A DNA stretch of 64,000 bases from an uncultured Chitinophaga sp. (GTDB taxonomy: Bacteria > Bacteroidota > Bacteroidia > Chitinophagales > Chitinophagaceae): the NCBI GenBank assembly GCA_964596345.1, contig CAZQSZ010000001.1, forward strand, positions 752,696 to 816,695, written 5' to 3'. Below are positions 10,948 to 25,917 of the stretch, piece by piece. The position numbers and the translations under genes are program-made. Each line of letters starts with the position of its first letter. The stretch's first letter is position 1. Under the pieces are notes generated by a model, which was not told the DNA's origin, did not search any database, and saw nothing but the letters and a program-made list of their open reading frames with translations.

Positions 10948-11355
10948 ATGCTTTCAATGAAGTCACAATATGCCTTTAAGGCATTAAGTTATCTCACGGT
11001 AAAATTTAACGAGGGTCCCGTGCTGATCTCCGAGATCGCCAAAAAGAAGAAGATCCCGTTAAAGTTTCTCGAAAATATCCTGCTGGAATTAAAGAAAGCG
11101 GGTATACTGGATAGCAAGAAAGGCAAAGGAGGGGGATACTTTCTCCGGCAACGGCCCGATAAGGTAAAAGTAGCTACCGTGATCCGGCTGATCAATGGAC
11201 CTATTGCCATGCTGCCTTGCGTAAGTCTCTATTTCTATGAACGTTGCAAGAATTGCGACGAGAAGAAATGCGGCCTTCATGACATGATGGTGGAAGTTCG
11301 GGACGCCACCCTGCAGATTGTTGAGAACAGGACGCTGCAAGACCTTGTCATGTGA
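10948..11355 (+). CDS. Rrf2-family transcriptional regulator with a four-Cys C-terminal cluster
   Basis: MLSMKSQYAFKALSYL... winged-helix N-terminus typical of Rrf2. The C-terminal region carries C-x8-C-x2-C-x4-C (PCVSLYFYERCKNCDEKKCGLH). Confidence 0.85.
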   Translation: MLSMKSQYAFKALSYLTVKFNEGPVLISEIAKKKKIPLKFLENILLELKKAGILDSKKGKGGGYFLRQRPDKVKVATVIRLINGPIAMLPCVSLYFYERCKNCDEKKCGLHDMMVEVRDATLQIVENRTLQDLVM

Positions 11356-11424
11356 TTATTCTGTTTTGTTTCTTACCAACAATAGTTAGCGGCATCGTTT
11401 GCACGATATATTCAGTCCACCGGG

Positions 11425-11455
11425 TTGGTGGGGTAATGAATTAAGCCTATTTTTG
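11425..11455 (+). promoter_or_regulatory. Candidate sigma-A promoter of the Prx-cys-siroheme block
   Basis: TTG (11425-11427), N20, TATTTTTG (11448-11455). It lies 21 nt upstream of the Prx ATG region. Confidence 0.35.
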
Positions 11456-11468
11456 TCTTCACAAAAAT
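11449..11468. promoter_or_regulatory. 20-bp perfect palindrome overlapping the -7 box (candidate operator)
   Basis: ATTTTTGT-cttc-ACAAAAAT, read directly. It sits immediately downstream of the Rrf2 gene. Confidence 0.3.
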
Positions 11469-11475
11469 TTCAATT

Positions 11476-12111
11476 ATGGCACTACGTCTCGGGGATGTTG
11501 CTCCCAACTTTAAAGCACAAACAACAGAAGGCGAAATAGATTTTTATGATTTCCTGGGAAACGGATGGGGAATATTATTTTCTCACCCCGCTGATTTCAC
11601 CCCGGTTTGTACAACTGAACTTGGGAAAACAGCCCTATTACAGGAGGAATTTGCCAAACGAAATGTAAAAGTGCTGGCAGTGAGTGTGGATCCGTTGGAT
11701 AAGCATATGGAGTGGAGAAAAGATATCAATGAAACACAACACTGCTCTGTTAGTTTTCCAATCATCGCTGATGAAGACAGGGTGGTTGCCCTGTTATATG
11801 ATATGATTCACCCGAATGCATCGGCAACTGCTACTGTGCGTTCTTTATTTGTGATCGGGCCCGATAAGCTAATTAAGCTGATGATCATTTATCCAGCTTC
11901 AACAGGTAGAAATTTTTACGAAGTATTAAGAGTGGTGGATTCATTACAGCTGACAGCGGGTTATAGCGTAGCTACACCGGCTGACTGGAAAGCAGGTGAG
12001 GATGTTATCGTTGTTCCGGCAGTGTCAACTGAAGATGCGATCAAGAAATTCCCTAAAGGGGTGAAGGTGGTTAAACCTTACCTGCGCTATACTCCACAAC
12101 CCAATCTTTGA
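11476..12111 (+). CDS. 1-Cys peroxiredoxin (Prx6-like)
   Basis: 211 aa. Contains FSHPADFTPVCTTELG, the peroxidatic-Cys motif, and the overall Prx6 length. Confidence 0.9.
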   Translation: MALRLGDVAPNFKAQTTEGEIDFYDFLGNGWGILFSHPADFTPVCTTELGKTALLQEEFAKRNVKVLAVSVDPLDKHMEWRKDINETQHCSVSFPIIADEDRVVALLYDMIHPNASATATVRSLFVIGPDKLIKLMIIYPASTGRNFYEVLRVVDSLQLTAGYSVATPADWKAGEDVIVVPAVSTEDAIKKFPKGVKVVKPYLRYTPQPNL

Positions 12112-12818
12112 TGCTGAGCAGCGAACAGATACAGGAAATAGAGAATAGCTCGTTGCCGGAAGCAATCCGTTTAATCACTGGTTTATTTCCCGGCGAAGTG
12201 GTCTTTTCTTCTTCTTTAGGACAGGAAGACCAGGTGCTCACGGATGTGATCTTCAAAAATGATCTGCCCGTTAAGATCTTCACGATCGATACGGGCAGGT
12301 TGTTTAATGAAACATATGAATTACTCGACCGTACCATTGCCCGGTATAAAAAACCAATACAGGTTTATTTCCCGGAAGCGGCTGATGTGGAAACGTTTGT
12401 AGCAGAAAAAGGGATCAACAGTTTTTATGAATCTGTGGACAACCGTAAGGAATGCTGCTATATCCGGAAAGTGATTCCATTGAACCGTGCATTGAAAGGA
12501 ACGAAGGTTTGGATTACCGGTTTAAGGGCTGAACAATCAAGCAACAGGCAACAGATGCCTATGATCGAATGGGCAGAAGATAAACAGTTATATAAGTTCA
12601 ACCCGCTGATGAACTGGAGCTATGATGAGATGATCAGTTATATCAATAAACATAATGTGCCCTATAACCGGTTGCATGATAAAGGATTTGTCAGCATCGG
12701 ATGTGCACCGTGTACAAGAGCCATTGAACCAGGTGAAGATGCAAGAGCCGGTCGCTGGTGGTGGGAAGCATCGCAGAAAGAATGCGGATTGCATGAAACA
12801 AAAGTGAAAGCGGGATAG
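12111..12818 (+). CDS. cysH: Adenylyl-sulfate (APS)-type assimilatory reductase, Fe-S-containing CysH
   Basis: ATG at 12111 overlaps the Prx stop (TGATG). Contains KECCYIRK plus IGCAPCTRA (the CC...CxxC cluster motif of APS reductases) and a C-terminal KECGLH. Confidence 0.85.
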   Translation: MLSSEQIQEIENSSLPEAIRLITGLFPGEVVFSSSLGQEDQVLTDVIFKNDLPVKIFTIDTGRLFNETYELLDRTIARYKKPIQVYFPEAADVETFVAEKGINSFYESVDNRKECCYIRKVIPLNRALKGTKVWITGLRAEQSSNRQQMPMIEWAEDKQLYKFNPLMNWSYDEMISYINKHNVPYNRLHDKGFVSIGCAPCTRAIEPGEDARAGRWWWEASQKECGLHETKVKAG

Positions 12819-12867
12819 TTTTTTTACCAGAATTGTTTGCAGTCAATGCAAACGTACAATAATAGTT

Positions 12868-13776
12868 ATGAGTAAATATCATTTGGATTACCTGGAGCAG
12901 CTCGAAGCAGAGAGTATTCACATTTTTCGTGAAGTGGCTGCTCAATTTGAAAGACCGGCACTCTTATTCAGTGGTGGGAAAGATTCTATTACGATGGTGC
13001 ACCTGGCCAAAAAAGCATTTGCGCCGGGAAAAATACCTTTTCCATTAGTGCATATTGATACCGGGCACAATTTCCCGGAAGCACTGGAATTCCGTGACTG
13101 GCTGGCCAACGAAGTCAATGCAACACTGGTTGTCAGGAAAGTGGAAGACACGATTAAACAAAAAAACCTGACGGAACCGAAAGGAAAATTTCCCAGCCGT
13201 AACTGGTTACAGACTTATACACTCTTAGATACGATCGAAGAATTCAAATTTGATGCTTGTATCGGTGGAGCCCGCAGGGATGAGGAAAAAGCAAGGGCAA
13301 AGGAAAGAATATTTTCTGTCCGGGATGAATTTGGGCAATGGAACCCCAAATTGCAACGACCAGAACTCTGGAATATTTACAATGGCAGAATTCATAAGGG
13401 GGAGAATGTGCGGGTATTCCCGATCAGCAACTGGACAGAACTGGACATCTGGAATTATATCCGCAAAGAAAATATTGATCTTCCGTCTATCTATTTTGCA
13501 CATGAGCGGCAGGTGATCGAACATGAAGGGCAGCTGGTGGCCATCAGTGAATTTGTGCAACCAGATGCAAGTGATGTGGTACTGACCAAACAAGTCCGGT
13601 ACAGAACGGTTGGTGATATGACCTGTACAGCTGCGGTTGAATCTGCTGCAGCTAACCTGGATGAAGTGATCAACGAGATCATAGCAACCAGGATCAGTGA
13701 GCGGGGAGAAACCAGGATCGATGATAAAGTAACGGAAGCAGCGATGGAAGATCGGAAGAAGAACGGGTATTTTTAA
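12868..13776 (+). CDS. cysD: Sulfate adenylyltransferase subunit 2
   Basis: 302 aa. Contains LLFSGGKDS (PP-loop) and is highly CysD-like throughout. Confidence 0.95.
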   Translation: MSKYHLDYLEQLEAESIHIFREVAAQFERPALLFSGGKDSITMVHLAKKAFAPGKIPFPLVHIDTGHNFPEALEFRDWLANEVNATLVVRKVEDTIKQKNLTEPKGKFPSRNWLQTYTLLDTIEEFKFDACIGGARRDEEKARAKERIFSVRDEFGQWNPKLQRPELWNIYNGRIHKGENVRVFPISNWTELDIWNYIRKENIDLPSIYFAHERQVIEHEGQLVAISEFVQPDASDVVLTKQVRYRTVGDMTCTAAVESAAANLDEVINEIIATRISERGETRIDDKVTEAAMEDRKKNGYF

Positions 13777-13837
13777 CTCCCAACTCCCTGAAGGGGGGCT
13801 TTGGGTAATATTCTTTGTAAATAAATTATCTAACTAT

Positions 13838-13904
13838 TTGGTCTTTCAGTGAGCGAAGGACCAATACAAATTAAGTTCCCTCCTGAGCTTGCCGAAGGAA
13901 GGGA
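13838..13904 (+). other. Two tandem related stem-loops in the cysD-cysN gap
   Basis: First: TTGGTCTTT-cagtgagcg-AAGGACCAA (13838-13864), 9 bp including one G-U pair. Second: TTCCCTCC-tgagcttgccgaa-GGAAGGGA (13876-13904), stem with a bulge. Both loops contain TGAGC and both hairpins contain CGAAGGA spanning the loop/3'-arm junction. Confidence 0.45.
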
Positions 13905-13913
13905 CAAAGTGAT

Positions 13914-15155
13914 ATGGATCTATTACGTTTTATAACTGCAGGTAGCGTCGATGACGGGAAAAGTACACTGATCGGGAGATTGTTGTACGATAGTAAGAAT
14001 ATTCTCATTGATCAGCTGGAAGCACTGGAAAAGTCAACGAAGAACAGGACCGATGGTTCTGTTGATCTTGCCTTGCTCACCGACGGGCTCAGGGCTGAAA
14101 GGGAACAGGGTATTACGATTGATGTGGCGTATCGTTACTTTACCACGCCGAAAAGAAAATTCATTATTGCCGATGCTCCCGGTCATGTGCAATACACCCG
14201 TAACATGATCACCGGTGCTTCTAATGCCAGCCTGATCATTGTTCTGGTAGATGCAAGACAAGGTGTGGTGGAACAGACAAGACGCCATTCTATTATCGCT
14301 TCTTTATTGAAGATACCGCATGTGGTGGTTGCTATCAATAAGATGGACCTGGTAGGGTACTCGCAGGATGTTTTCAATAATATCGTGATCGACTATGCTG
14401 AAGTGGCGAAGCAATTAGGATTAAAGAATGTGACCTATATCCCGATCAGTGCTTTGAATGGTGATAATATCGTGGACAGATCAGCGATCATCGACTGGTA
14501 TGATGGGAAGCCATTGCTGGAATTCCTGGAAGAAGTGGATACGGCACATGATATTGACCTGGATAATGCCCGTTTCCAGGTGCAGTTTGTAATCAGACCT
14601 CAGACGGAAGAATTACATGACTATCGTGGCTATGCCGGGAAGATTATCAGCGGTATTTATAAAAAAGGGGATAAGGTAAAAGTGTTGCCAGCTGGTTTGG
14701 AAACAACCATCAGTAAACTGGAAGTGGGTGGACAGGAAGTGGAAGAAGTATTTGCACCGCAGGCGGCCGTTATTCAACTGGCGGATGATATTGATATCAG
14801 CCGGGGCGATGCGATCATTAAAGCAGAAGATACACCTGTTGTCAGCAATGAACTCGAAGTTTTGCTCTGCTGGCTGGATGATAAACCTTTACAGGCGGGC
14901 AACAAGTATTATTTGCAGCACAACAGCCGTTTGGTGAGGGCCGTGGTGAAAAATATTGAATACAAACTGGATGTAAACACCCTTCAGCAACAGCCGGTGG
15001 AAGGAGGGGTAAAACTGAATGAAGTGGTCAAGGCCACGATCAGGACAGCATCAGCACTAGTGTATGATCCGTATGATCAATTTGTTGTAAACGGAAGTGC
15101 TATTCTTGTGGATGAAACAAGCAACAGTACGGTAGCGGCGGTGCTGCTGCAGTAA
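13914..15155 (+). CDS. cysN: Sulfate adenylyltransferase subunit 1 (GTPase); no fused APS kinase domain
   Basis: 413 aa. Contains GSVDDGKST (G1), DAPGH and NKMD. Confidence 0.92.
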   Translation: MDLLRFITAGSVDDGKSTLIGRLLYDSKNILIDQLEALEKSTKNRTDGSVDLALLTDGLRAEREQGITIDVAYRYFTTPKRKFIIADAPGHVQYTRNMITGASNASLIIVLVDARQGVVEQTRRHSIIASLLKIPHVVVAINKMDLVGYSQDVFNNIVIDYAEVAKQLGLKNVTYIPISALNGDNIVDRSAIIDWYDGKPLLEFLEEVDTAHDIDLDNARFQVQFVIRPQTEELHDYRGYAGKIISGIYKKGDKVKVLPAGLETTISKLEVGGQEVEEVFAPQAAVIQLADDIDISRGDAIIKAEDTPVVSNELEVLLCWLDDKPLQAGNKYYLQHNSRLVRAVVKNIEYKLDVNTLQQQPVEGGVKLNEVVKATIRTASALVYDPYDQFVVNGSAILVDETSNSTVAAVLLQ

Positions 15156-15196
15156 ATTTTTTTATCTAATTAGTCTATTAAAAAAGTAGAATATTA

Positions 15197-15991
15197 ATGA
15201 ATAACAAGGGCAGCGTAATACTGGCAGGAGCAGGTCCCGGTGATGCAGAACTCATTACTATAAAATTGCAAAAGCGGTTAAGGGAAGCTGATGTGATCAT
15301 TACTGACCGGCTGGTGAACCCAATGATCATTGAAGCACATGCAAGCCCTGAGGCCATAGTTATTGTTGCAGGTAAGCAGGGTTATAATGATGCTTCTGTT
15401 TCGCAGGAAGATATCTGCAACCTGATTGTTGTTCATGCACTGGATGGAAAAAATGTATTACGACTTAAAGGTGGTGATGTGGCTTTTTTCAGTAATGTAC
15501 TGGATGAACTGAAAGTGTTGGAGGAAAACAATATTTCGTTTGAGATCATCCCGGGTATTACCGCTGCATCAGGCGCATCTGCTTATGCAGGTATCCCGTT
15601 AACTGCCCGTGGATATGCCCAGGCTGTACAATTTATCACTTTCAATCCAACTAATTTTTATAGTTCAGACAAATGGAAAAGCCTGGCAGGCACGAGTGAT
15701 ACACTGGTATTTTACATGGCCGCCAAGAATATAGCTGACCTCGCTGAATTATTGTTGCGTTATACCCGGAAGCCTTCCACCCCGATGGCAGTGATTGAGC
15801 AGGCAACTACACAACATCAGCAGGTTCATATAAGCACCTTAAAAGATTGTGCCAGTGATTTTGCCGGAAAACACTTCAGTTCCCCTTCCCTGGTTATTGT
15901 AGGAGAAGTGGTGGAGTTACACCAGTCATTTAACTGGTTTGCCGCAGGGGGAACCGGTTCTGTATTCAATGAATTGATAACTGCTAAATAG
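15197..15991 (+). CDS. cobA: Uroporphyrinogen-III C-methyltransferase (SUMT)
   Basis: 264 aa. Contains GAGPGDAELITIKL...ADVIITDRLV and IPGITAASGA motifs. Confidence 0.85.
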   Translation: MNNKGSVILAGAGPGDAELITIKLQKRLREADVIITDRLVNPMIIEAHASPEAIVIVAGKQGYNDASVSQEDICNLIVVHALDGKNVLRLKGGDVAFFSNVLDELKVLEENNISFEIIPGITAASGASAYAGIPLTARGYAQAVQFITFNPTNFYSSDKWKSLAGTSDTLVFYMAAKNIADLAELLLRYTRKPSTPMAVIEQATTQHQQVHISTLKDCASDFAGKHFSSPSLVIVGEVVELHQSFNWFAAGGTGSVFNELITAK

Positions 15992-15996
15992 TAGCT

Positions 15997-17694
15997 ATGA
16001 TCGGCGAAGGAAGATTAAAACAATTACGCCAGTTTCTGGAAAGCTACTCACAGGAGGAGCTGGTCTGGATCAATGGCTACCTGTCTGGTATCGTGGCTAA
16101 CCGGAATACGAATGGCCATGAAACAAAGCAGGCTGTAAAAAAAATAAACCTTTTATTCGGCACCGAAACCGGGAATTCAAAAAGATTGGCCACTCAATTA
16201 GCAGGAGTAGCCAAAAAGAAAGGCATTCATGTAAAATTGACTGATCTAAGTCAGTACCGCCTGGCTGATCTTTCAAAAGAAGAATATTTTTTTGTCGTGA
16301 TCAGTACACAGGGCGAAGGGGAACCTCCCATCCCGGCGAAGAAATTCTATGATCATTTACAGGAAACTACTTTATCGCTACCGGGTCTGAAGTATAGTGT
16401 ACTTGCACTGGGTGATTCATCTTATCCCCTGTTTTGCAAAACTGGGGAGGAGGTGGATGCAAAGCTTGAACAGTTTGGCGGGGCAAGAGTAGTTCCGTTG
16501 CAAAAATGTGATGTTGATTATGAAGAAGACGCTGCCAGCTGGTTTGATAAGGTGCTGGCCATAGTGGATCAACAGACAGCAGTAACCCCGGTGCCTGTTG
16601 CAGTGAAGCCAGTAGAGAAAAAGGCGACAGGGAAAAAATATTACCACGGGAAAATTCTAACGAATATCAACCTGAATGACAGGGGCTCTAATAAACAAAC
16701 GTACCATATCGAGATCGGAGCGGATGAGCCGATAGCTTATGAACCCGGTGATACAATTGGCATTGTACCTGCTAATAGAAAAGAAGTAGTGGATAGAATC
16801 ATTGCTTTAACTGGAATTGATCCTTCTTTGGAAATAAGTACAGCAAAAGCAACAGCAGCAGTAAGGGAATTGCTGACCTATAACCTCAATATCTGCTACC
16901 TGCTTACATCAACAGTTAAAAAATATGCGGCTATTACTGAGCAGGAAATTCCGGATATAAGAATGGACCTTGTTGATCTGCTGAGGATATACCCGCTAAA
17001 AAATACAGGCCAGTTTATAGAAGTACTCAAATCATTAATGCCCATAGCACCCCGGTTATATTCTGTATCATCTTCCCCTGCAGCACATGGAGAAAATGAA
17101 GTGCATATCACCGTGGCAAGAAACCAGTTCCTGGCGCAGGACGAACACCGCTTTGGTTTGTGCAGCGAATTCCTGGGCGATCAGCCAGTTGGGACGACAA
17201 TGAGTTTTTATGTGCACAAGGATAAGAATTTCAAACTCCCGGCTTCTGATAAAGATGTGATCATGATCGGACCCGGTACCGGTGTGGCACCTTTCCGGGC
17301 CTTCCTTGCACACCGGGATGCAACAGGTGCTGTTGGCAGAAACTGGTTCTTTTTTGGTGAACAGCATTTCCTGACTGATTTTTTATACCAGTCAGAAATG
17401 CAGCAATATGTGCAAACAGGAGTTTTAACAAATATTGACCTGGCGTTTTCAAGAGACCAGCCAGCGAAGATTTATGTACAGCACCGGATGCTGGCAAAAG
17501 CGGCAGAATTATATCAATGGATCAGTAGCGGAGCCTACCTCTTTATCAGCGGTACCAAAGACCCGATGAGTAAAGATGTGGAAGCTGCCCTGTTGCAGAT
17601 CATTGAAAAGGAAGGGAAAAAAACAAATGACGAAGCCCGGCAATACCTGGAGCAATTGGAAAAGGACGGAAGATATGAGAAGGATGTGTATTGA
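15997..17694 (+). CDS. cysJ: Assimilatory sulfite reductase (NADPH) flavoprotein alpha component
   Basis: 565 aa. Flavodoxin domain (LFGTETGNSKRLA) plus an FAD/NADPH domain (RLYSVSSS, GPGTGVAPFRAF, C-terminal YEKDVY). Confidence 0.85.
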   Translation: MIGEGRLKQLRQFLESYSQEELVWINGYLSGIVANRNTNGHETKQAVKKINLLFGTETGNSKRLATQLAGVAKKKGIHVKLTDLSQYRLADLSKEEYFFVVISTQGEGEPPIPAKKFYDHLQETTLSLPGLKYSVLALGDSSYPLFCKTGEEVDAKLEQFGGARVVPLQKCDVDYEEDAASWFDKVLAIVDQQTAVTPVPVAVKPVEKKATGKKYYHGKILTNINLNDRGSNKQTYHIEIGADEPIAYEPGDTIGIVPANRKEVVDRIIALTGIDPSLEISTAKATAAVRELLTYNLNICYLLTSTVKKYAAITEQEIPDIRMDLVDLLRIYPLKNTGQFIEVLKSLMPIAPRLYSVSSSPAAHGENEVHITVARNQFLAQDEHRFGLCSEFLGDQPVGTTMSFYVHKDKNFKLPASDKDVIMIGPGTGVAPFRAFLAHRDATGAVGRNWFFFGEQHFLTDFLYQSEMQQYVQTGVLTNIDLAFSRDQPAKIYVQHRMLAKAAELYQWISSGAYLFISGTKDPMSKDVEAALLQIIEKEGKKTNDEARQYLEQLEKDGRYEKDVY

Positions 17695-17723
17695 TGATGC
17701 GAAAACGCAATTGTACAACAGGT

Positions 17724-17760
17724 GAACAGAATTACAGGACGATGAAGAGTGCGACGCAAC
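17724..17760 (+). repeat. Copy A of a repeated intercistronic element
   Basis: GAACAGAattacaggACGATGAAGAGTGCGACGCAAC. The core 17739-17760 matches 53418-53439 at 21 of 22 positions. Confidence 0.7.
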
Positions 17761-17819
17761 AGGTGTTGAGCAGGATTATATAAGCTGGCAGCATGATCAT
17801 TTAAAGAGCAATTTACAGT

Positions 17820-19484
17820 ATGAGCGAAAAAAATAATTTATCAGCAGTTGAACGGATCAAGACATCCAGTGATGGTTTGCGGGGCACGTTGAAAGAAAGT
17901 CTGCAGGACGGGCTGACCGGTGCCTTGAAAGAAGATGATCAGTCGCTGATCAAATTTCACGGCCTGTACCAGCAGGATGACAGGGACAGGAGAGAAGAAC
18001 GTACGGAGAAAAAATTAGAATGGTTATATTCTTATATGATCCGGTTACGGCTTCCCGGAGGTTTTTTAACAGCAGAGCAGTGGATCGGTTTACATCATAT
18101 AGCTGGTGAGCATTCAACTGGCACCATCAAGATCACCACACGCCAAACTGTACAACTGCATGGAATAGTAAAATCACATATTAAACCAACGATACAGTCT
18201 TTCAATACCCTTCATCTTGATTCTATTGCTGCCTGCGGTGATGTGAACAGGAATGTAACCTGCAGTGCTCACCCCAGAGAATCAGCGATACATGAACAGG
18301 TGTTTCAATATGCAGATAAGATCAGTGTGATGGCTTTACCCAAAACAAGATCTTATTATGAAATATGGCTGGATGAAGAACAGATAGCAGATAAGAAAGA
18401 AGATGATCCTTTATACCAGGACCGCTACCTGCCCAGGAAATTCAAAGTAGGTATTGCCATTCCGCCGAATAATGATGTGGATGTACTGACCAATGATGTC
18501 GGCTTGATTGCTATCATTGAAAATAATGAACTGAAAGGATTCAATATTGCAGCCGGTGGCGGTTTAAGTTCCACGCATGGCAACCCCGCAACTTATGCAA
18601 GACTGGCAACGGTGTTGGGATTTGTGGATACAGAAGAAAAAGTATTGAAAGCAGTATATGAGATCATGACCATTCAACGGGATCATGGTAACAGGAGTGA
18701 CCGGAAACTGGCCCGGCTGAAATATACGATCGATAAGCTGGGTGTTGATCCGTTTAAGGAAGAATTAGAGAAACGATGCGGATTTAAACTTGAGCCGGTA
18801 AAACCCTACACGTTTACTACAAGAAAAGATCATTATGGCTGGAAGCAGAATCATGAAGGCAACTGGTATTATACCGTGTTTGTGGAAAATGGAAGGATAC
18901 TGGATGATGAAAAACTGCCACTGAAAACAGCCTTACTGGAAATAGCCAAAACAGGTAAGCTGAATTTCCGGTTTACAGGCAATCAGAATGTAATACTTGC
19001 AGATGTAAAAGAGGCAGACAAAAATGAGATTGATGCATTATTGCAGCAGTTTAATATCAGTGATCATACTGCTGCTGCGGGGGCACTGCGCAAAAATGCA
19101 ATGGCTTGTGTGGCATTCAATACCTGCCCGTTGGCATTGGCAGAGGCACAGCGTTACCTGCCTTCCCTGGTTGATAAGATCGAACCTTTACTGAAGAAGC
19201 ATTCAATTGAGCAAGAAGAGATCATATTACGAATGACCGGTTGCCCCAATGGGTGCGGCCGTTCCCCGGCTGCAGAAATTGGTTTTGTTGGAACCGCCTA
19301 TGGACAATACAACCTGCATATTGGAGGAGACAGGATCGGTGAAAGATTGAATAGAAAATATAAGGACAGCCTGGATGAGCCGCAAATACTGGAAGAGCTG
19401 GATCAATTGTTTGCTGTGTATAGTGCGAAAAGAAACGCCGGGGAAACCTTTGGTGATTTTGTCATCCGTGAAAAAATAGTGTGA
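17820..19484 (+). CDS. cysI: Assimilatory sulfite reductase hemoprotein beta component (siroheme/[4Fe-4S])
   Basis: 554 aa. Cluster/siroheme Cys motifs [11 protein letters not shown] and [11 protein letters not shown]. Confidence 0.92.
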
Positions 19485-20749
19485 TGTTTTTGTACGACAA
19501 TTATTTTAGACAACGCCTGCAGGAACTAAAGGATAACGGCTCCTACCGCTATTTTTTAGAAGTGAACAAGAGTGCCCAGCACTTTCCGCATTTCTATTAC
19601 CAGGATGCCAGTGGGATGCAACGTTCAGCGGTGAACTGGTGCAGTAATGATTATCTCTGTATGAGTACAAGGGAAGAGGTAATCGCCAAACTTGGATTTG
19701 TTACACACCGCAGTGGCACCGCCAGCAGTGGTACCCGAAATATTTCAGGTACGACAGTGCATCATAAAGAACTGGAAACAACTTTGGCGGCCTGGCATAA
19801 AAAAGAAGCCGCCTTATTATTCAACGGAGCTTATGCGGCAAATGTAACAACACTGCAAACATTGGGCAGGCATATTCCCGGGCTGATCTTTATTTCAGAT
19901 GAGCGGAACCATGCTTCCCTGATCGAAGGGATGAGAGGAGCAGGTAATGAGAAAAGAATTTTCCGTCACAATGATATGAAAGAGCTGGAAAGAATTTTGA
20001 ATGCCATTCCGCTGCAAACGCCCAAGTTGCTGGTATTTGAATCGGTGTATTCCATTTCAGGAACCATCGCCCCGGTAAAAGAGATCATCGCATTGGCAAG
20101 AAAGTATAACGCCATGACTTATGTTGATGAAGTCCATGCCGTCGGGCTTTATGGAGAAACAGGGGCCGGTATTTTTGAACAGGAAAAACTGCAGGATGAA
20201 ATTGATATCCTGAACGGGACCCTCTCGAAGGCAATTGGTGTGTTTGGCGGATATATTGCAGCTTCAGCTGTGATCATTGATTTTATCCGTAGTTATGGAA
20301 GTGGGTTTATTTTCACCACTTCATTGCCCCCTGCTGTTTGCAGTGCTGCTACTAAAAGTATACAGTTGATTCAACAGCATCCGGAATGGAGACAGGAGTT
20401 CAGGGCTAATGTTCAGTTGCTTCGAAAAGCCCTGCAGGAAAACCAGGTTGAGTTCCGTACTAACGATTCACATATCACCAGTGTACCAATCAGGGATGCG
20501 GTCCGGTGCAGGCAACTGGCCAATGAACTGCTGCAAAAACAGGGAGTGTACCTGCAGCCGATCAATTATCCAACTGTACCCAAAGGCGAAGAATGCCTCC
20601 GCATTATTGTAACGGCAAGGCACCTGGTAAAGCATATTAATCATTTGGCATTTAGTTTATCTAAAATAATTCATGGAGACGATCAGGCTCATAGGACGGG
20701 ATTCGCGGCTTTCGCTGCTGCAACTGGAGATAGTGAAGCAGCGTATTGA
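19484..20749 (+). CDS. hemA: 5-aminolevulinate synthase homologue (C4/Shemin-type, alpha-oxoamine synthase family)
   Basis: ATG at 19484 overlaps the cysI stop (TGATG). Motifs closely track alphaproteobacterial ALAS as I recall it: [62 protein letters not shown] (PLP lysine), [14 protein letters not shown] and [19 protein letters not shown]. Confidence 0.8.
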
Positions 20750-22196
20750 AACAGCAGCGAGCGGAATCAAAGTGGAGATCATTGCCCGCAGCAGCCGGGG
20801 CGATGAGCTGCAGGATGTGCCTTTGCAAACCGTGGAAGGAAGCGATTTTTTTACACAGGATATTTTTGATGCCCTGGAGAATGGAACTGCCGATATTGCT
20901 GTTCATTCATTAAAAGATATGAGCAACGAACATTTTTTTGGAACCAATAAGTTTGCCGTGGTGGACAGGGATGATACCAGGGACGTGGCCATCTTCCAAA
21001 AAGATATTCAACGAAAAATCACAGAAGGAAAACAGATCGTTATCGGAACCTGTTCCCCCAGGCGGGAAGAAATGGCAATTGGTTTTTTGCAAAAGGCTTT
21101 ACCGCAGTTGCATACCAATTTCCGGGTGGTTACAAAAACGATCCGGGGAAATGTGGATACAAGATTACGAAAACTGGAGAGTGGTGAGTATGATGGTATC
21201 ATCCTCGCAACAGCCGGGCTAAACAGATTATTGAGAAGCTGTGAAGATGCGGGAGTAAAGGAGTTATTGAAAGATAAAAAGCTGATGTTGTTACCGCTGG
21301 TAGAATGTGTGCCTGCTCCCTGCCAGGGAGCTATTGTGGCAGAAGCAGTTCCCGGAAACAGCAGGGCTATAGAATTGCTCAATATCATCAACAATAGCAG
21401 CTTGATGATTGATTGTACGAGGGAGAAGAAAGAAGCCTTGCAATATGGCGTGGGTTGTTTGCAAAAATTTGGAGTTACTACATTTAATCATGATGGTAAG
21501 AAGAGTTTGTATGCAGCGGGTAAGAATAGCAAAGGACAGTCATTTAGCAAATGGGAAGGATTACCGGAGTTGGATATTGCTACTAAGAAATTTTTCAGCA
21601 GTACAGATTATATGGGTGAATTTTTTGGTTACGACTATCATGCCGAGACAATTCAAATCAATGAACCGGTAGTTTACGTTGCCAATTATAAAGCAGTACA
21701 TCATAATAGTCTTACCGGCCAGTTAAGTGAAAAGAAAGTCTGGGCGGCCGGCACCAAAACCTGGTATGAACTGGCTAAGAAAGGAGTCTGGGTAGAGGGA
21801 TCTGCAGATGCTTTCGGGCTGGAAACATTGATCCCGGTTTGGCAAATGCCACTGATCGGGATTGAGAAAGAGGAAGTAGCTGTGATTACAAATGACCAGT
21901 CAAAGACGAACTGGCAACAAAAGAACTGGAAGGTTTACAGCACTTATTCTTTACTGGAAGAACAATCGGTGGTAATAAGTGAGCAGATCAAAGAAGCGGA
22001 TGTTATCTTCTGGACAAGTTTCCGGCAGTACCAGCAGTATAAAGAACTGCTAAAAAATAATGTGCAGCATGTTTGCCCTTTTGGGGAAACAGCAGAACAA
22101 TTCAAAGCAGCAGGTTTGAAACCTGTAGTATTTCCAAACATAAAAGCATTTCAGCAATGGAGACAAACTTCTGGCCAGTTACCCAGCGTCGCCTGA
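20673..22196 (+). CDS. hemC: Hydroxymethylbilane synthase with a ~210-aa C-terminal uroporphyrinogen-III-synthase-like extension
   Basis: Residues ~1-295 carry HemC motifs: [52 protein letters not shown] and cofactor Cys VGCLQKF. The tail resembles HemD segments ([43 protein letters not shown]). Confidence 0.8.
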
Positions 22197-23152
22197 GAGC
22201 AGGTACACATATAAGAGAGCTGATAGCCTCGGTAAAACTCAATCACAAGAGTTTTATCCAGCCGGTATTTGTGGAGGAAGGGATCAGCTCTCCAAGAACA
22301 GTGAAGGGGTTAAATGAGGTGCAGGTAGAAATGGCGGATTCAATAGTATATAGTATGGAACAGGATATCAGGAACGGGATTTCAAAATTCCTGTTATTTC
22401 CTGTACCAGCAACGAAAAAGGATAAGGAGTTTGATTTCTCATTTGCTGCTAATGTGATAAGGCGGGTAAAGGAAAATTTCGGTGAAGATGCATGGCTGGC
22501 TGCAGATGTTTGCTTATGCAGTTATACTACGCATGGGCATTGTGGTATTCTAAACCAGGATCACACACAGCTCTTAAACAGCAAAACAGTGGAACTGTTG
22601 AGCCACTATGCTTCTTTATTGGCTAATGCCGGGGTGGATTGTATTGCGCCGAGTGATATGATGGATGGCCGTATAGGGGCGATCAGAAGCAAACTGGATG
22701 CGCTGGGGTATGAACAGGTAAGCATCATGAGCTATGCAGCAAAGTTTAGTTCGCAGTTTTACGGGCCTTTCAGGGATGCCTGTCATTCTGTTCCCAATTC
22801 AACTGGATTGAAAAACAGGAAGACATACCAGTTATCCCCCTTTACTATCAACGATGCACTGGCATCTGCCATGCGGGATGAAAAAGAAGGAGCTGATATA
22901 TTGATGGTAAAACCAGCAGCACTTTATACAGATATAATCGCAAAACTGAAGCAACAAACCTTAAAGCCGGTGGCAGCATACCATGTGAGCGGGGAGTATG
23001 CAGCTATTGAAGCGTTGGCGGAGAAAGGTTTGCTGGACAGGGAAGCAGCACATGTGGAGGTGTGGGCGGCGCTGCAACGCAGCGGGGCAGATATTATTAT
23101 TTCCTATGCGGCAAGAAATGCAAAAGAGTGGATCAACCAGGCAATCATTTAA
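22157..23152 (+). CDS. hemB: Porphobilinogen synthase (ALA dehydratase), Zn-type
   Basis: ORF 22073..23152 (TTG start) trimmed to the ATG at 22157, where homology begins ([14 protein letters not shown]...IQPVFVEEG). Contains the Cys-rich metal site DVCLCSYTTHGHCG, PSDMMDGRIG and the active-site MVKPA. Confidence 0.9.
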   Translation: METNFWPVTQRRLRAGTHIRELIASVKLNHKSFIQPVFVEEGISSPRTVKGLNEVQVEMADSIVYSMEQDIRNGISKFLLFPVPATKKDKEFDFSFAANVIRRVKENFGEDAWLAADVCLCSYTTHGHCGILNQDHTQLLNSKTVELLSHYASLLANAGVDCIAPSDMMDGRIGAIRSKLDALGYEQVSIMSYAAKFSSQFYGPFRDACHSVPNSTGLKNRKTYQLSPFTINDALASAMRDEKEGADILMVKPAALYTDIIAKLKQQTLKPVAAYHVSGEYAAIEALAEKGLLDREAAHVEVWAALQRSGADIIISYAARNAKEWINQAII

Positions 23153-23167
23153 AAGTTAACAGGACCG

Positions 23168-24688
23168 ATGGATAGTCATATAGATAAAACAGCCCCGGAA
23201 ACAAGTAACGGTGATGGTACAAAGAACCAGTTGTATCCTGTTTTCCTGAAACTGGAGCAGTTAAATATTTTACTGGTGGGAGCCGGTAATGTAGGGTTGG
23301 AGAAATTACATTCACTTTTGTCGAATTCTCCCCAGGCAAAGATCACGGTAGTGGCACCAGGGGTTAAAAAAGAAGTAAGGGAATTGGTACAAAAGCATCC
23401 TTCTTGCACAATTATTGAAAGGCAATTCCAGGAGGAAGATCTTGAGAATAAAGAGCTGGTTATTTTAGCAACTGATAATAAAGAATTACACCAGGATATC
23501 ACCCAACTCGCCAATGCCAACAAGATACTGATCAATGTGGCAGATACACCCGAACTCTGTGATTTCTATTTGGGCAGTATTGTGCAGAAGGGATTATTGA
23601 AGATCGCTATCTCCACCAATGGGAAATCGCCAACAGCAGCCAAACGTATCAGGGAAGTTTTGAATGAATCTTTGCCTTCAGAACTGGATGAGCTGATCAG
23701 TAACCTGAATAAGGTGCGGGGTAAGCTGAACGGTAATTTTGACTATAAAGTAAAAAAGCTGAATGCACTTACCAAAATCCTGGTAGATAAGGACAGCACC
23801 GTGGGTGAAAGAAGATGGCGAAAGATCGCTACCTGGTCCTTGGTCATTTTTGCCTCTATGCTTGTCGGGCATTTCATTTTATCTTATTTGCCTTTCCGGC
23901 AAATAGCAGATGATACGGTGGCGTGGTACGGTACATTGGATAAAAATTTTCACTGGATGGTGCTGGCTGGTTTTCTTGCACAAATGGTGGATGGAGCCAC
24001 CAGTATGGGATACGGAGTTACGAGTTCGGTTGTTTTACAAACGGCACAGGTAAGCCCTGCTGCCATTAGTGCCGGTATTCATACGGCAGAGATGTTTACT
24101 ACAGCTGCGTCGGGGTATAGTCACTATAAATTCAAGAATGTAAATAAAAAATTATTTAAGGCGCTGGTGATTCCAGGTGTTATTGGCGCTGTATTGGGAG
24201 CTTTATTATTAGTTTGGTTTGATGACACACATATTAAGTATCTGCGTCCCGCTATGGCTATTTATACATTGATGCTCGGCTTAAAGATATTCAGTAATGC
24301 GTTTCGTACTACCGGAAAGAGTAAATTCAAACGCTATGGCTGGCTGGCGGGTGCAGGTGGTTTCCTGGATTCATTCGGGGGAGGAGGCTGGGGACCCATT
24401 GTTACCTCCACACTGATAACAAAAGGAAGGACACCCAGGTATGTTATTGGTTCTGTAAGCCTGACCGAATTCTTTGTTACGCTGGCCAGTGCTTTTACAT
24501 TTTTTACGCTTATAGGTGTGCAAGGCTGGCAAATAATACTGGCATTGGTACTGGGAGGAGTTATAGCCGCACCTATTGCAGCGAAGCTGGCAGGTAAATT
24601 GCCTAAGAAAACCTCTTTCGTTTTATTAGGAGTTATTGTCGTTGCCTGGAGCACCAGGATATTAATTAATACCTTTATATCCCTATAG
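23168..24688 (+). CDS. Fusion of a precorrin-2 dehydrogenase/sirohydrochlorin ferrochelatase (SirC/Met8/CysG-N-like) domain to a TauE/SafE (TSUP) family membrane permease
   Basis: One uninterrupted 506-aa ORF. Residues ~25-215 contain YPVFLKLEQLNILLVGAGNVG and NVADTPELCDFYLGSIVQKGLLKIAISTNGKSPTAAKRIRE. Residues ~225-506 are multi-TM with Gly-rich TSUP-like motifs (MVDGATSMGYG, GGFLDSFGGGGWGPI). Confidence 0.7.
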   Translation: MDSHIDKTAPETSNGDGTKNQLYPVFLKLEQLNILLVGAGNVGLEKLHSLLSNSPQAKITVVAPGVKKEVRELVQKHPSCTIIERQFQEEDLENKELVILATDNKELHQDITQLANANKILINVADTPELCDFYLGSIVQKGLLKIAISTNGKSPTAAKRIREVLNESLPSELDELISNLNKVRGKLNGNFDYKVKKLNALTKILVDKDSTVGERRWRKIATWSLVIFASMLVGHFILSYLPFRQIADDTVAWYGTLDKNFHWMVLAGFLAQMVDGATSMGYGVTSSVVLQTAQVSPAAISAGIHTAEMFTTAASGYSHYKFKNVNKKLFKALVIPGVIGAVLGALLLVWFDDTHIKYLRPAMAIYTLMLGLKIFSNAFRTTGKSKFKRYGWLAGAGGFLDSFGGGGWGPIVTSTLITKGRTPRYVIGSVSLTEFFVTLASAFTFFTLIGVQGWQIILALVLGGVIAAPIAAKLAGKLPKKTSFVLLGVIVVAWSTRILINTFISL

Positions 24689-24741
24689 TATTGGGACGAT
24701 GAGTTTACCTTTGTCCTCTTTTTACAAGTAAGTCTAATTTT

Positions 24742-25917
24742 ATGGCGAAGCAACACCCGGAAACAAAGGCGATCCGTATTCAGACCAGGCAAACGGGCCA
24801 GAAAGAACATTCAACCCCGTTATTCCTGACCAGCAGTTTTACCTATGAATCAGCAGAGGATATGGCTGCCGCTTTTGCCGATGACTCACTGGAAGTGAAT
24901 ATTTATTCCCGTTTTTCCAACCCAACCGTTGATGAATTTATTATCAAGATCGCTACTCTCGAAGGGGCAGAAGATGGTATTGCCACCGGAACAGGGATGG
25001 CCGCAGTGTTTTCCACTTTCATGACTTTTTTATCCAAAGGAGATCATATCATTTCTGCTTCTGCGGTGTTTGGCTCCACTCATACCATCCTTACTAAATA
25101 TTTACCGAAATGGGGCATTGAGAGTTCTTATTTTGATATGAGCAAACCGGAAACTATTGCAGCATTGATCAAACCAACTACCAAAATGCTGTATATCGAA
25201 ACACCGAGTAATCCCGGATTGGATATTATTGACATTGAGTATGTTTCGGTGCTTTGCAAACAGCATAATATTTTGCTGGTAGTGGATAATTGTTTTGCTA
25301 CCCCGGCGGTACAGCAACCCATAAAATTTGGCGCTGATCTCGTACTACATTCTGCTACCAAATTTATTGACGGGCAGGGCAGGGTATTAGGTGGAGTGGT
25401 GGTAGGCCGGAAAGAACTGATCAACCCGATGTATTTATTTGTACGGAATACCGGCCCTTCATTGAGCCCGTTCAATGCCTGGGTGCTTAGTAAAAGCCTG
25501 GAGACATTATTCATCCGCATGGATAAGCATGCAACAAATGCGATGCAACTGGCTGTGGCTTTACAAAATCATCCGAAGATCGGTTCGGTAAAATATCCTT
25601 TCCTGGAATCACATCCGCAATATGCCATTGCAAAAAAGCAAATGAGTAATGGCGGTGGTATCGTCACTTTTGAATTAAAAGGGGGTATTGAAAGTGGCCG
25701 GAAGTTCCTGAATGCACTACAAATGCTTTCCATGACCAATAATTTGGGCGACAGTCGCAGCATCGCTTCGCATCCTGCTTCTACCACCCATTCCAAACTG
25801 ACAGAGGAAGAAAGGCAGTCTGTCGGGATAACGCCGGGATTAATCAGGCTTTCTGTTGGCCTGGAACATCCGGATGACGTGTTGCAGGATATTTTACAGG
25901 CGCTGAATAAGTGCTGA
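24742..25917 (+). CDS. metZ: O-succinyl/O-acetyl-homoserine sulfhydrylase (Cys/Met-metabolism PLP enzyme)
   Basis: 391 aa. Contains LFLTSSF, YSRFSNPTV, HSATKFIDGQGR (PLP lysine), LSPFNAW and NLGDSRS...HPASTTH, closely MetZ-like. Confidence 0.8.
   Translation: MAKQHPETKAIRIQTRQTGQKEHSTPLFLTSSFTYESAEDMAAAFADDSLEVNIYSRFSNPTVDEFIIKIATLEGAEDGIATGTGMAAVFSTFMTFLSKGDHIISASAVFGSTHTILTKYLPKWGIESSYFDMSKPETIAALIKPTTKMLYIETPSNPGLDIIDIEYVSVLCKQHNILLVVDNCFATPAVQQPIKFGADLVLHSATKFIDGQGRVLGGVVVGRKELINPMYLFVRNTGPSLSPFNAWVLSKSLETLFIRMDKHATNAMQLAVALQNHPKIGSVKYPFLESHPQYAIAKKQMSNGGGIVTFELKGGIESGRKFLNALQMLSMTNNLGDSRSIASHPASTTHSKLTEEERQSVGITPGLIRLSVGLEHPDDVLQDILQALNKC

Follow-up and report, generated by a model that had tools for sequence, protein, structure and literature searches.

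A predicted 5-aminolevulinate synthase within a Chitinophaga sulfate-assimilation cluster, probably serving siroheme synthesis

An open reading frame at positions 19484-20749 (+ strand) of the window, the 64,000-nt stretch of an uncultured Chitinophaga genome that we analysed, is predicted to encode a 5-aminolevulinate synthase (ALAS), as supported by profile HMM scoring, structure matches, active-site residues and phylogeny. We put a probability of roughly 0.8 on the reading that this ALAS is functional and is the genome's only tetrapyrrole entry, that the cassette containing it supplies siroheme to the sulfite reductase CysI, and that haem is scavenged. A 2026 review of haem biosynthesis names the alphaproteobacteria as the only bacteria with ALA synthase (PMC13564367). 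The enzyme described here would be the sole tetrapyrrole entry of a Bacteroidota lineage, serving siroheme instead of haem. NCBI automatic annotation already labels these proteins as ALAS, and in our search of the literature on ALAS in Bacteroidota or Chitinophagaceae, siroheme and haem auxotrophy, no paper described such a gene arrangement.

Identity of the synthase

The ORF translates without stops into 421 aa, and the six sequence blocks that had pointed the original prediction to an ALAS were all recovered verbatim. As was also predicted, its ATG at 19484 overlaps the cysI stop codon (TGA, 19482-19484) by one common base, in the context gTGATGt; an alternative GTG start lies one codon upstream, at 19481. 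The catalytic core spans residues 3-396 and is followed by a run-on tail of 25 residues (397-421) that overlaps the downstream hemCD gene.

TIGR01821 was the sole NCBIfam model passed, at 483.9 bits (cut-off 338.55, E 3.5e-145). The protein stayed under the cut-offs of the BioF model TIGR00858 (330.3 bits, cut-off 426.45), the KBL models TIGR01822 (247.7 bits, cut-off 493) and NF005394 (296.6 bits, cut-off 460), and the SPT models NF047599, NF047600 and NF047603 (210-244 bits, cut-offs 500-670; the score of 244 faces a cut-off of 640). Its top PDB matches are the ALAS entries 7x98, 2bwn and human ALAS2 (E 1e-101 to 1e-108), with 7x98 and 2bwn at 1e-104 to 1e-108 and a KBL structure at only 1e-55. 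By these E-values and that of TIGR01821, the resemblance to ALAS far exceeds chance. Pairwise alignment to 2bwn (R. capsulatus numbering) showed that R21, N54, T83, N85, H142, S189, D214, H217, T245, K248, T278 and R374 are conserved. The PLP lysine K248 together with N54, H142, S189, D214, H217, T245 and R374 is present in all 15 Chitinophagaceae copies compared, as are T83 and N85. R21, T83 and N85 are what we take to be the succinyl-CoA carboxylate-binding positions that tell ALAS from KBL, BioF and SPT; they read R/T/N here, compared with K/V/F in E. coli KBL, R/S/H in E. coli BioF, and K/V/F, R/S/L and R/A/M in the genome's own three paralogues, which share the superfamily and PLP chemistry and are ~31-32% identical to the ALAS.

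In a maximum-likelihood tree rooted with KBL/BioF (the E. coli proteins and the genome's own paralogues), the protein falls on the ALAS side, with SH-aLRT 98 (IQ-TREE PMSF, 55 rows), and the same split has a FastTree support of 99 (118 rows). The grouping with KBL or BioF that the original prediction had left open thus appeared neither in the tree nor in HMM scoring. Furthermore, the genome has a true KBL at another locus (C1:545422-546702, 687.8 bits, cut-off 493), and also a separate BioF-like gene, which leaves neither of these two roles vacant.

Within the ALAS side, the protein belongs to a well-supported clade of its own, apart from alphaproteobacterial and eukaryote-length sequences and from every biochemically characterised ALAS (~48-52% identity). 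As this clade holds no characterised enzyme, its activity is proposed from the conserved residues and the gene context. Like alphaproteobacterial ALAS (HemA/HemT; R. capsulatus PDB 2BWN; PDB 7X98), the protein is a fold-type-I PLP α-oxoamine synthase and passes the same equivalog HMM. Its identity to named alphaproteobacterial hemA genes is 47-48%, and the residues contacting PLP, glycine and succinyl-CoA are all conserved. In contrast to those enzymes, which supply haem or bacteriochlorophyll, the present one is encoded in a cys/siroheme cluster of a Bacteroidota genome, carries the tail overlapping the next gene, and lies in a clade that includes ALAS-HemC fusions.

The α-oxoamine synthase family is notoriously difficult to assign by sequence, the BioF and KBL models still give ~300-330 bits, and the clade lacks a characterised member, all of which could suit an enzyme of other specificity (a KBL, a BioF, an SPT, or an ALAS-like cyclising enzyme from secondary metabolism). 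We nevertheless consider this very unlikely, since the curated cut-off of TIGR01821 alone is exceeded, the carboxylate-binding residues are ALAS-like, the tree sets the protein apart from KBL and BioF, and both of these have their own genes. It would also leave unexplained the HemC fusions of related lineages, the tetrapyrrole gene neighbours in 21 of 21 related loci, and a HemB for which no other gene in the genome could supply ALA.

The gene cluster and the proposed route to siroheme

The ALAS gene lies in a co-directional cluster on the + strand, just downstream of a gene for a putative Rrf2-family regulator (10948-11355; PF02082, E 4.7e-32). The cluster opens with a 1-Cys peroxiredoxin (11476-12111; PF00578, PF10417), followed by a CysH-type (P)APS reductase (12108-12818; PF01507, E 1e-48), the sulfate adenylyltransferase small subunit CysD (12868-13776; PF01507, E 2.5e-43) and its GTPase subunit CysN (13914-15155; PF00009, PF22594). 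Next come the uroporphyrinogen-III C-methyltransferase CobA/SUMT (15197-15991; TIGR01469, 242 bits, cut-off 185), a CysJ-like sulfite reductase flavoprotein (15997-17694; Flavodoxin_1, FAD_binding_1, NAD_binding_1) and the siroheme-dependent sulfite reductase haemoprotein CysI, of the NIR_SIR/CysI type (17820-19484; PF01077, PF03460). The cassette itself, with CobA upstream of it, then runs in the order ALAS, HemC-HemD, HemB, SirC-TauE, and the last gene of the cluster encodes an O-succinylhomoserine sulfhydrylase-like enzyme, a sulfide consumer (24742-25917; NF006003, 512.5 bits, slightly below the cut-off of 522).

The gene after ALAS encodes a fusion of hydroxymethylbilane synthase and uroporphyrinogen-III synthase (HemC-HemD, 20673-22196; TIGR00212, 172.7 bits, cut-off 164). 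It starts in the +1 frame relative to ALAS, 77 nt ahead of the ALAS stop. We do not attribute this overlap to a sequencing error or to a frameshift in an ALAS-HemCD fusion gene, as hemCD has its own ATG, the HemC profile begins at residue 4, and an overlap of 74-77 nt is retained in three related MAGs (93-95% identity). The N-terminal part of the predicted HemCD model matches PBG deaminase structures (E 1e-18). For the C-terminal domain, phmmer against PDB sequences gave no match, Pfam HEM4 reached a sub-threshold 21.5 bits (threshold 27.5), and a Foldseek search with the full-length model matched no folds other than those of HemC and periplasmic binding proteins. Folded separately, the domain gave a model of pLDDT 89 for which uroporphyrinogen-III synthases take each of the first 13 places among the PDB matches (E down to 2e-7), and it is by this predicted fold only that we assign it as a putative HemD.

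HemB, a Cys-rich, Zn-type porphobilinogen synthase (22157-23152; NF006762, 354 bits, cut-off 297), carries the motif DxCxCxYx3GHCG. Its ORF opens at TTG 22073, and ATG 22157, which gives 331 aa, the length of its relatives, is the probable start. The next product (23168-24688; TIGR01470, 120.9 bits, cut-off 62.3) joins SirC/CysG-N, comprising precorrin-2 dehydrogenase and a putative ferrochelatase, to a TauE/SafE permease (PF13241, PF14824, PF01925).

Taken together, these predicted functions would form a complete route. ALAS would condense glycine and succinyl-CoA to 5-aminolevulinate with release of CoA and CO2, HemB would convert ALA to porphobilinogen, and the HemC-HemD fusion would carry this on to uroporphyrinogen III. 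CobA would then yield precorrin-2, which the SirC/CysG-N domain, with its putative chelatase, may convert to siroheme for insertion into CysI, encoded directly upstream and start-stop coupled to ALAS. Parts of this arrangement are familiar from E. coli and Salmonella (CysG with cysJIH) and Bacillus megaterium (sirABC), where the same SUMT and CysG-N/SirC-type domains take uroporphyrinogen III to siroheme for CysI and are likewise linked to sulfate-assimilation genes. In those organisms, however, the uroporphyrinogen III comes from the housekeeping pool made by the C5 route, whereas the present cluster has its own ALAS, HemB, HemC and HemD in a genome that lacks a housekeeping pathway.

This Shemin-type branch would be transcribed together with the sulfate-assimilation genes and expressed along with them. 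Scans for σ70-type promoters and terminators produced no excess of hits over shuffled sequence, and none of the listed holders of the stretch is recorded as RNA. Four short contigs of a single metatranscriptome, produced in a related study, match the cluster, one of them within ALAS (20111-20350), which is a weak hint of expression, with DNA carry-over as another possible source.

Tetrapyrrole genes in the genome and the family

The genome is a wastewater MAG of 10 contigs with a completeness of 100% and a contamination of 0.02%. GluTR and HemL are absent from it, HemE has no candidate whatever, and neither HemH (two first-look candidates scored) nor AhbA/B (nine scored) has a match at E<=0.001. 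There is no CbiX-type chelatase elsewhere in the genome and no corrin methylase, CobA being one of only two TP_methylase genes. HemB is the only ALAD; HemCD, CobA, SirC and CysI each occur once, all within this cluster, and CysI is the only NIR_SIR protein found and gives a single blastp match in the genome ORF set. From these absences we infer that siroheme is the only evident tetrapyrrole product and, as no other ALA route exists in the genome, that ALAS is the cell's only tetrapyrrole entry point. With no enzymes leading from uroporphyrinogen III or siroheme to haem, and none for corrins, the entire Shemin-type branch would serve sulfite reduction. The original prediction of a pathway dedicated to siroheme is thus supported by the gene content, and ALAS stands as the C4 entry point that it proposed, though not as an additional route beside another.

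The genome also contains three COX1 genes of haem-copper oxidases, whose haem would be scavenged. This host would then be a haem auxotroph, as judged from the missing homologues, although non-homologous or unrecognised enzymes are possible. Such enzymes, acting from siroheme or from uroporphyrinogen to haem, could in principle let the cassette supply both cofactors and spare the cell auxotrophy. The oxidases' need for haem would favour a hidden route, and haem pathways have often been revised, as with the coproporphyrin-dependent and Ahb routes, so that unrecognised steps are conceivable. We consider it improbable because of the HemE, HemH and AhbA/B results above, because this triple absence recurs in all eight other ALAS-bearing genera of the family, because an HmuY-like haem-binding protein is encoded, and because the cassette is set among cys genes and not respiratory genes.

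Also very unlikely is an artefact of assembly or binning, whereby a contaminating alphaproteobacterium would have contributed the cassette or assembly gaps would hide the haem genes. While a MAG in 10 contigs invites the question, its completeness and contamination values argue against both, the cassette lies within a contig of 962 kb and is surrounded by genes typical of Bacteroidota, the ALAS does not nest within the alphaproteobacterial sequences, and ~20 independent MAGs have an identical or similar arrangement, several of them on contigs of 1-3 Mb.

The siroheme-only reading is also consistent with the pattern across 101 Chitinophagaceae genera. ALAS occurs in nine, and all nine lack GluTR and HemH, possess an NIR_SIR (siroheme) reductase, and share a low-scoring HemB of the Zn type that is distinct from the family's usual HemB. 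Among the sister genera, GluTR is found in 70 and HemH in 70. A further 20 of the 101 genera have no HemB, and NIR_SIR is missing there too. The family thus falls cleanly into three states: a complete haem pathway by the C5 route, the siroheme cassette with ALAS, or no tetrapyrrole pathway. Siroheme reductases are missing only in the last, and the family offers a tractable natural experiment in how cofactors drive the loss and replacement of genes. A respiring haem auxotroph may, it appears, retain a tetrapyrrole pathway of its own, or gain one, to serve one cofactor alone, and pipelines for pathway completeness that take C4/C5 together with the "common" module to mean "haem synthesis" would misclassify such genomes.

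Relatives and origin of the cassette

The arrangement is well preserved in related loci: hemCD lies directly 3′ of ALAS in 21 of 21, hemB and sirC-tauE come next wherever the fetched locus extends so far, and an NIR_SIR reductase adjoins ALAS in most. The nearest tree relatives outside Chitinophagaceae are ALAS-HemC-HemD fusions (Saprospiraceae P0123 and P0124; P0195 and P0201, ~890 aa), which contain the same enzymes in the same order but in one polypeptide, compared with two genes and a 77-nt out-of-frame overlap here. Natural ALAS-HemC fusions among these outgroups include P0123 (917 aa) and P0195 (894 aa), whose sister is P0124, from a Saprospiraceae MAG and the sole representative ALAS cluster protein with a taxon name. 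Sister ALAS lineages are P0134, P0129 and P0195.

The original prediction that the synthase was horizontally acquired is upheld in part. The Zn-type HemB unlike that of the family and the patchy occurrence across it make a horizontal origin of the cassette plausible, but no donor was found, and the ALAS clade does not nest within the alphaproteobacteria. The cassette may have been acquired as one unit. In a poorly resolved single-marker tree of Ffh from 41 genomes, the cassette is patchy and the starred branches force at least three changes, among which gains are not separable from losses.

We tentatively propose, as a possibility that we rate below even odds, that ALAS-HemCD-HemB(Zn)-SirC is a mobile Chitinophagales siroheme cassette of a second, non-alphaproteobacterial ALAS lineage, in a clade shared with the free-standing ALAS-HemC-HemD fusions, and that it was passed repeatedly among bacteria that had lost haem synthesis. 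If so, bacteria without haem synthesis would keep assimilatory sulfite reduction, ALAS would not have been invented by the alphaproteobacteria and would have no tie to haem, and being a haem auxotroph would be separable from being tetrapyrrole-free. Being compact, the cassette could also be used as a portable part that supplies engineered hosts with siroheme.

Identity and ends of the ALAS gene

The open reading frame at 19484-20749 on the forward strand of the window translates into 421 residues with no internal stop, and all the sequence blocks that the original prediction had quoted for the product are found in this translation. The one-base overlap between its ATG and the upstream TGA (gTGATGt) was likewise confirmed, as was the identity of the upstream neighbour, cysI, which encodes a NIR_SIR/CysI-type sulfite reductase haemoprotein. 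A GTG one codon upstream of the ATG is an alternative start. At the other end, the hemCD ATG (20673, +1 frame) lies 77 nt ahead of the ALAS stop, so that the two genes share 20673-20749, each in its own frame. The ALAS profile stops precisely at the hemCD start, and because the final 25 ALAS residues lie beyond the profile, they are probably an unconstrained run-on. In other Chitinophagaceae loci, this junction shows short overlaps or small gaps.

The product had been called a 5-aminolevulinate synthase, with 2-amino-3-ketobutyrate CoA ligase (KBL) and 8-amino-7-oxononanoate synthase (BioF) as the competing families. TIGR01821 (5-aminolevulinate synthase) was the sole NCBIfam model above its curated cut-off (483.9 bits versus 338.55), while the BioF model (330 against 426 bits), the KBL models (297 against 460 and 248 against 493 bits) and three serine palmitoyltransferase (SPT) models (210-244 against 500-670 bits) all fell below theirs. 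The top five sequence matches in the PDB are ALAS entries, including 7x98, 2bwn, human ALAS2 and yeast ALAS (E 1e-90 to 1e-108), with KBL next at E 1e-55. A pairwise alignment with 2bwn and a MAFFT alignment of 118 sequences showed conservation of R21, N54, T83, N85, H142, S189, D214, H217, T245, K248, T278 and R374 (R. capsulatus numbering). T83 and N85, which we take to be the contacts of the succinyl-CoA carboxylate in the 2BWN structure of R. capsulatus ALAS, are T/N in 15 of 15 Chitinophagaceae copies, compared with V/F in KBL, S/H in BioF, and S/L, A/M and V/F in three paralogues from the same genome, the last being its KBL orthologue. Trees from FastTree (118 rows) and IQ-TREE (LG+C20 PMSF, 55 rows), which took E. 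coli KBL and BioF plus these three paralogues as the root, placed the protein on the ALAS side (support 99 and SH-aLRT 98, respectively), clustering with neither KBL nor BioF. Together, these data uphold the ALAS assignment and support the enzyme as a further member of the known ALAS family. Elsewhere the genome also carries a genuine KBL (688 bits versus the cut-off of 493), together with a BioF-like gene and one more α-oxoamine synthase; therefore, the KBL and BioF functions are not vacant. The third paralogue (contig C2, 393712-394971; L004) is under every NCBIfam cut-off (KBL 293, SPT 287, BioF 278 bits) and is possibly an acyltransferase of the sphingolipid or sulfonolipid type.

Within the ALAS tree (IQ-TREE, 55 rows), the Chitinophagaceae proteins form one clade with the homologues P0122, P0123 and P0124, the last from a Saprospiraceae MAG (SH-aLRT 96). 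Together with P0134, P0129 and P0195/P0201, it makes up a 16-row group (SH-aLRT 95), apart from the set that holds eukaryote-length proteins and the named hemA genes of the alphaproteobacteria Ruegeria, Roseobacter, Rhizobium and Sinorhizobium. ALAS is naturally fused to HemC in P0123 (917 aa) and P0195 (894 aa), which argues independently that enzymes of this lineage supply the tetrapyrrole pathway; Saprospiraceae and other relatives carry as a single protein of ~900 aa the enzymes that are encoded here by two overlapping genes. In a plasmid collection, 29 Bacillus plasmids encode a protein, some member of the α-oxoamine synthases, matching this ALAS at E <= 1e-80.

A predicted siroheme cassette in a probable haem auxotroph

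The gene lies within 13 co-directional genes (10948 to 25917) encoding, in order, an Rrf2 regulator, a 1-Cys peroxiredoxin, CysH, CysD, CysN, CobA (SUMT), CysJ, CysI, ALAS, a HemC-HemD fusion, HemB, a SirC/CysG-N-TauE permease fusion and an O-succinylhomoserine sulfhydrylase-like enzyme. The Rrf2-family regulator gene (10948-11355) ends 120 nt upstream of the peroxiredoxin gene, the first of the cluster proper. The N-terminal half of HemCD resembles porphobilinogen deaminase structures (E 1e-18). Its HemD half is sub-threshold in Pfam and gave no match in a PDB sequence search; the AlphaFold model of this domain (pLDDT 89) has uroporphyrinogen-III synthases as all of its best 13 PDB matches (E 2e-7 to 2e-4). 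The hemB start is probably ATG 22157, giving 331 aa as in relatives. The SirC fusion is a single ORF (23168-24688, forward strand) with a siroheme-forming SirC/CysG-N domain at residues 23-205 and a TauE/SafE (TSUP) membrane permease at residues 265-493, and it is maintained in the related loci that extend that far. Given these assignments, the HemD fold included, every step from glycine and succinyl-CoA to siroheme appears to be encoded in the cluster, adjoining the siroheme-using enzyme.

The genome itself (GCA_964596345.1; 4.6 Mb in 10 contigs, 100% complete, 0.02% contaminated, with the window inside a 962-kb contig) was searched in all six frames for the remaining pathway genes. These searches found no glutamyl-tRNA reductase (GluTR; best match 20 bits), no GSA aminomutase above cut-off, no candidate uroporphyrinogen decarboxylase (HemE), and no ferrochelatase (HemH), AhbA/B siroheme decarboxylase or CbiX chelatase. 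Only two TP_methylase genes are present, CobA and one other, and a corrin branch is therefore lacking. HemB occurs once, as do HemCD, CobA, SirC and CysI by blastp against all ORFs. The absence of the C5 route, HemE, HemH, Ahb and the corrin branch supports the proposed dedication of the ALAS to siroheme. The proposal of a C4 entry point holds in that the enzyme is predicted to feed tetrapyrroles, but without a GluTR/GSA aminomutase route it is therefore the only entry in this genome and not an extra one. Yet the genome has three haem-copper oxidase subunit I genes. A possible contributor to haem scavenging is an HmuY-like haem-binding protein (contig C4, 180620-181510; L036, L037), which matches the HmuY profile twice within a single 475-aa frame. 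The simplest reading would be a respiring haem auxotroph in which siroheme is the sole self-made tetrapyrrole, and we put the probability of a siroheme-only ALAS cassette in a haem auxotroph at about 80%.

Three tetrapyrrole states in Chitinophagaceae

We sampled one genome per genus from 101 Chitinophagaceae genera; as these genomes are kin, the counts describe the sample, with no statistics attached. ALAS is present in 9 genera, this genome counted. GluTR and HemH each occur in 70, in nearly identical sets, and neither is in any of the 9 ALAS genomes. HemB is found in 81, of which 72 score 419-489 bits against the ALAD profile; scores of 342-355 bits belong to exactly the 9 ALAS genomes. NIR_SIR reductases are present in 63, among them 9/9 ALAS genomes (adjoining ALAS in 8) and 0/20 HemB-less ones. 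The latter 20 genera have no HemB, GluTR, HemH, ALAS or NIR_SIR at all; most of their genomes are nearly complete, at 1.9-4.2 Mb. Losing tetrapyrrole synthesis altogether seems to be a common event in the family. These counts thus show three states: a full C5 haem pathway; the ALAS siroheme cassette, where a siroheme enzyme is present and a haem pathway is not; and neither a tetrapyrrole pathway nor a siroheme enzyme.

Across 400 sampled genomes of the phylum, the only ones with ALAS above cut-off were two more from Chitinophagaceae and one from a second Chitinophagales family. The related loci, from Chitinophagaceae/Chitinophagales MAGs, have hemCD directly 3′ of ALAS in 21 of 21 cases, followed by hemB and sirC-tauE wherever the locus extends far enough. 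Upstream lies either same-strand cysJI or a divergent NIR_SIR reductase on the opposite strand. The divergent gene, which occupies this position at roughly half of these loci (L014, L015, L017, L024-L026, L028-L030), is an open frame of ~700 aa that is ~25% identical to CysI and possibly encodes a sulfite or nitrite reductase of the ferredoxin type.

Origin, novelty and expression of the cassette

The cassette HemB (22157-23152) is of the Zn/Cys-rich type (DxCxCxYx3GHCG, DVCLCSYTTHGHCG), whereas the usual Chitinophagaceae HemB is Asp-rich (DVALDPYx3GHDG, DVALDPYSSYGHDG); the two are 36-41% identical, compared with 66-75% among the usual type within the family. Therefore, the cassette was not carved from the family's own haem pathway. 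A 41-genome Ffh tree, itself weakly resolved, interleaves the three states, and its well-supported branches require at least 3 changes of ALAS state. Two ALAS genomes, G069 and G047, are sisters by Ffh and far apart in the ALAS tree. This pattern is compatible with a cassette that was acquired and passed on as one unit, but does not prove it. Horizontal acquisition, one of the two origins first proposed, is plausible given the differing HemB type and the patchy states; no donor was identified.

Close homologues are already named '5-aminolevulinate synthase [Chitinophagaceae bacterium]' by the automatic pipelines of NCBI and JGI, and phage-borne AlaS is known (PMC11480375). Our full-text literature search returned no paper on ALAS in Bacteroidota or on a siroheme-dedicated Shemin route, and a 2026 review of haem biosynthesis (PMC13564367) names alphaproteobacteria as the sole bacterial holders of ALA synthase. 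What is new relative to known systems is the predicted Shemin-type siroheme-only cassette within a probable haem auxotroph.

Metagenomes from 12 studies, several of them possibly the source of the assembly itself, hold the window stretch, with at least 96% of sampled words in bioreactor and sludge samples and 81% in one biofilm. Four contigs in one metatranscriptome of a related study are at least 99% identical to the cluster, on the peroxiredoxin gene, cysH, cysD and ALAS (20111-20350), a weak hint that it is expressed.
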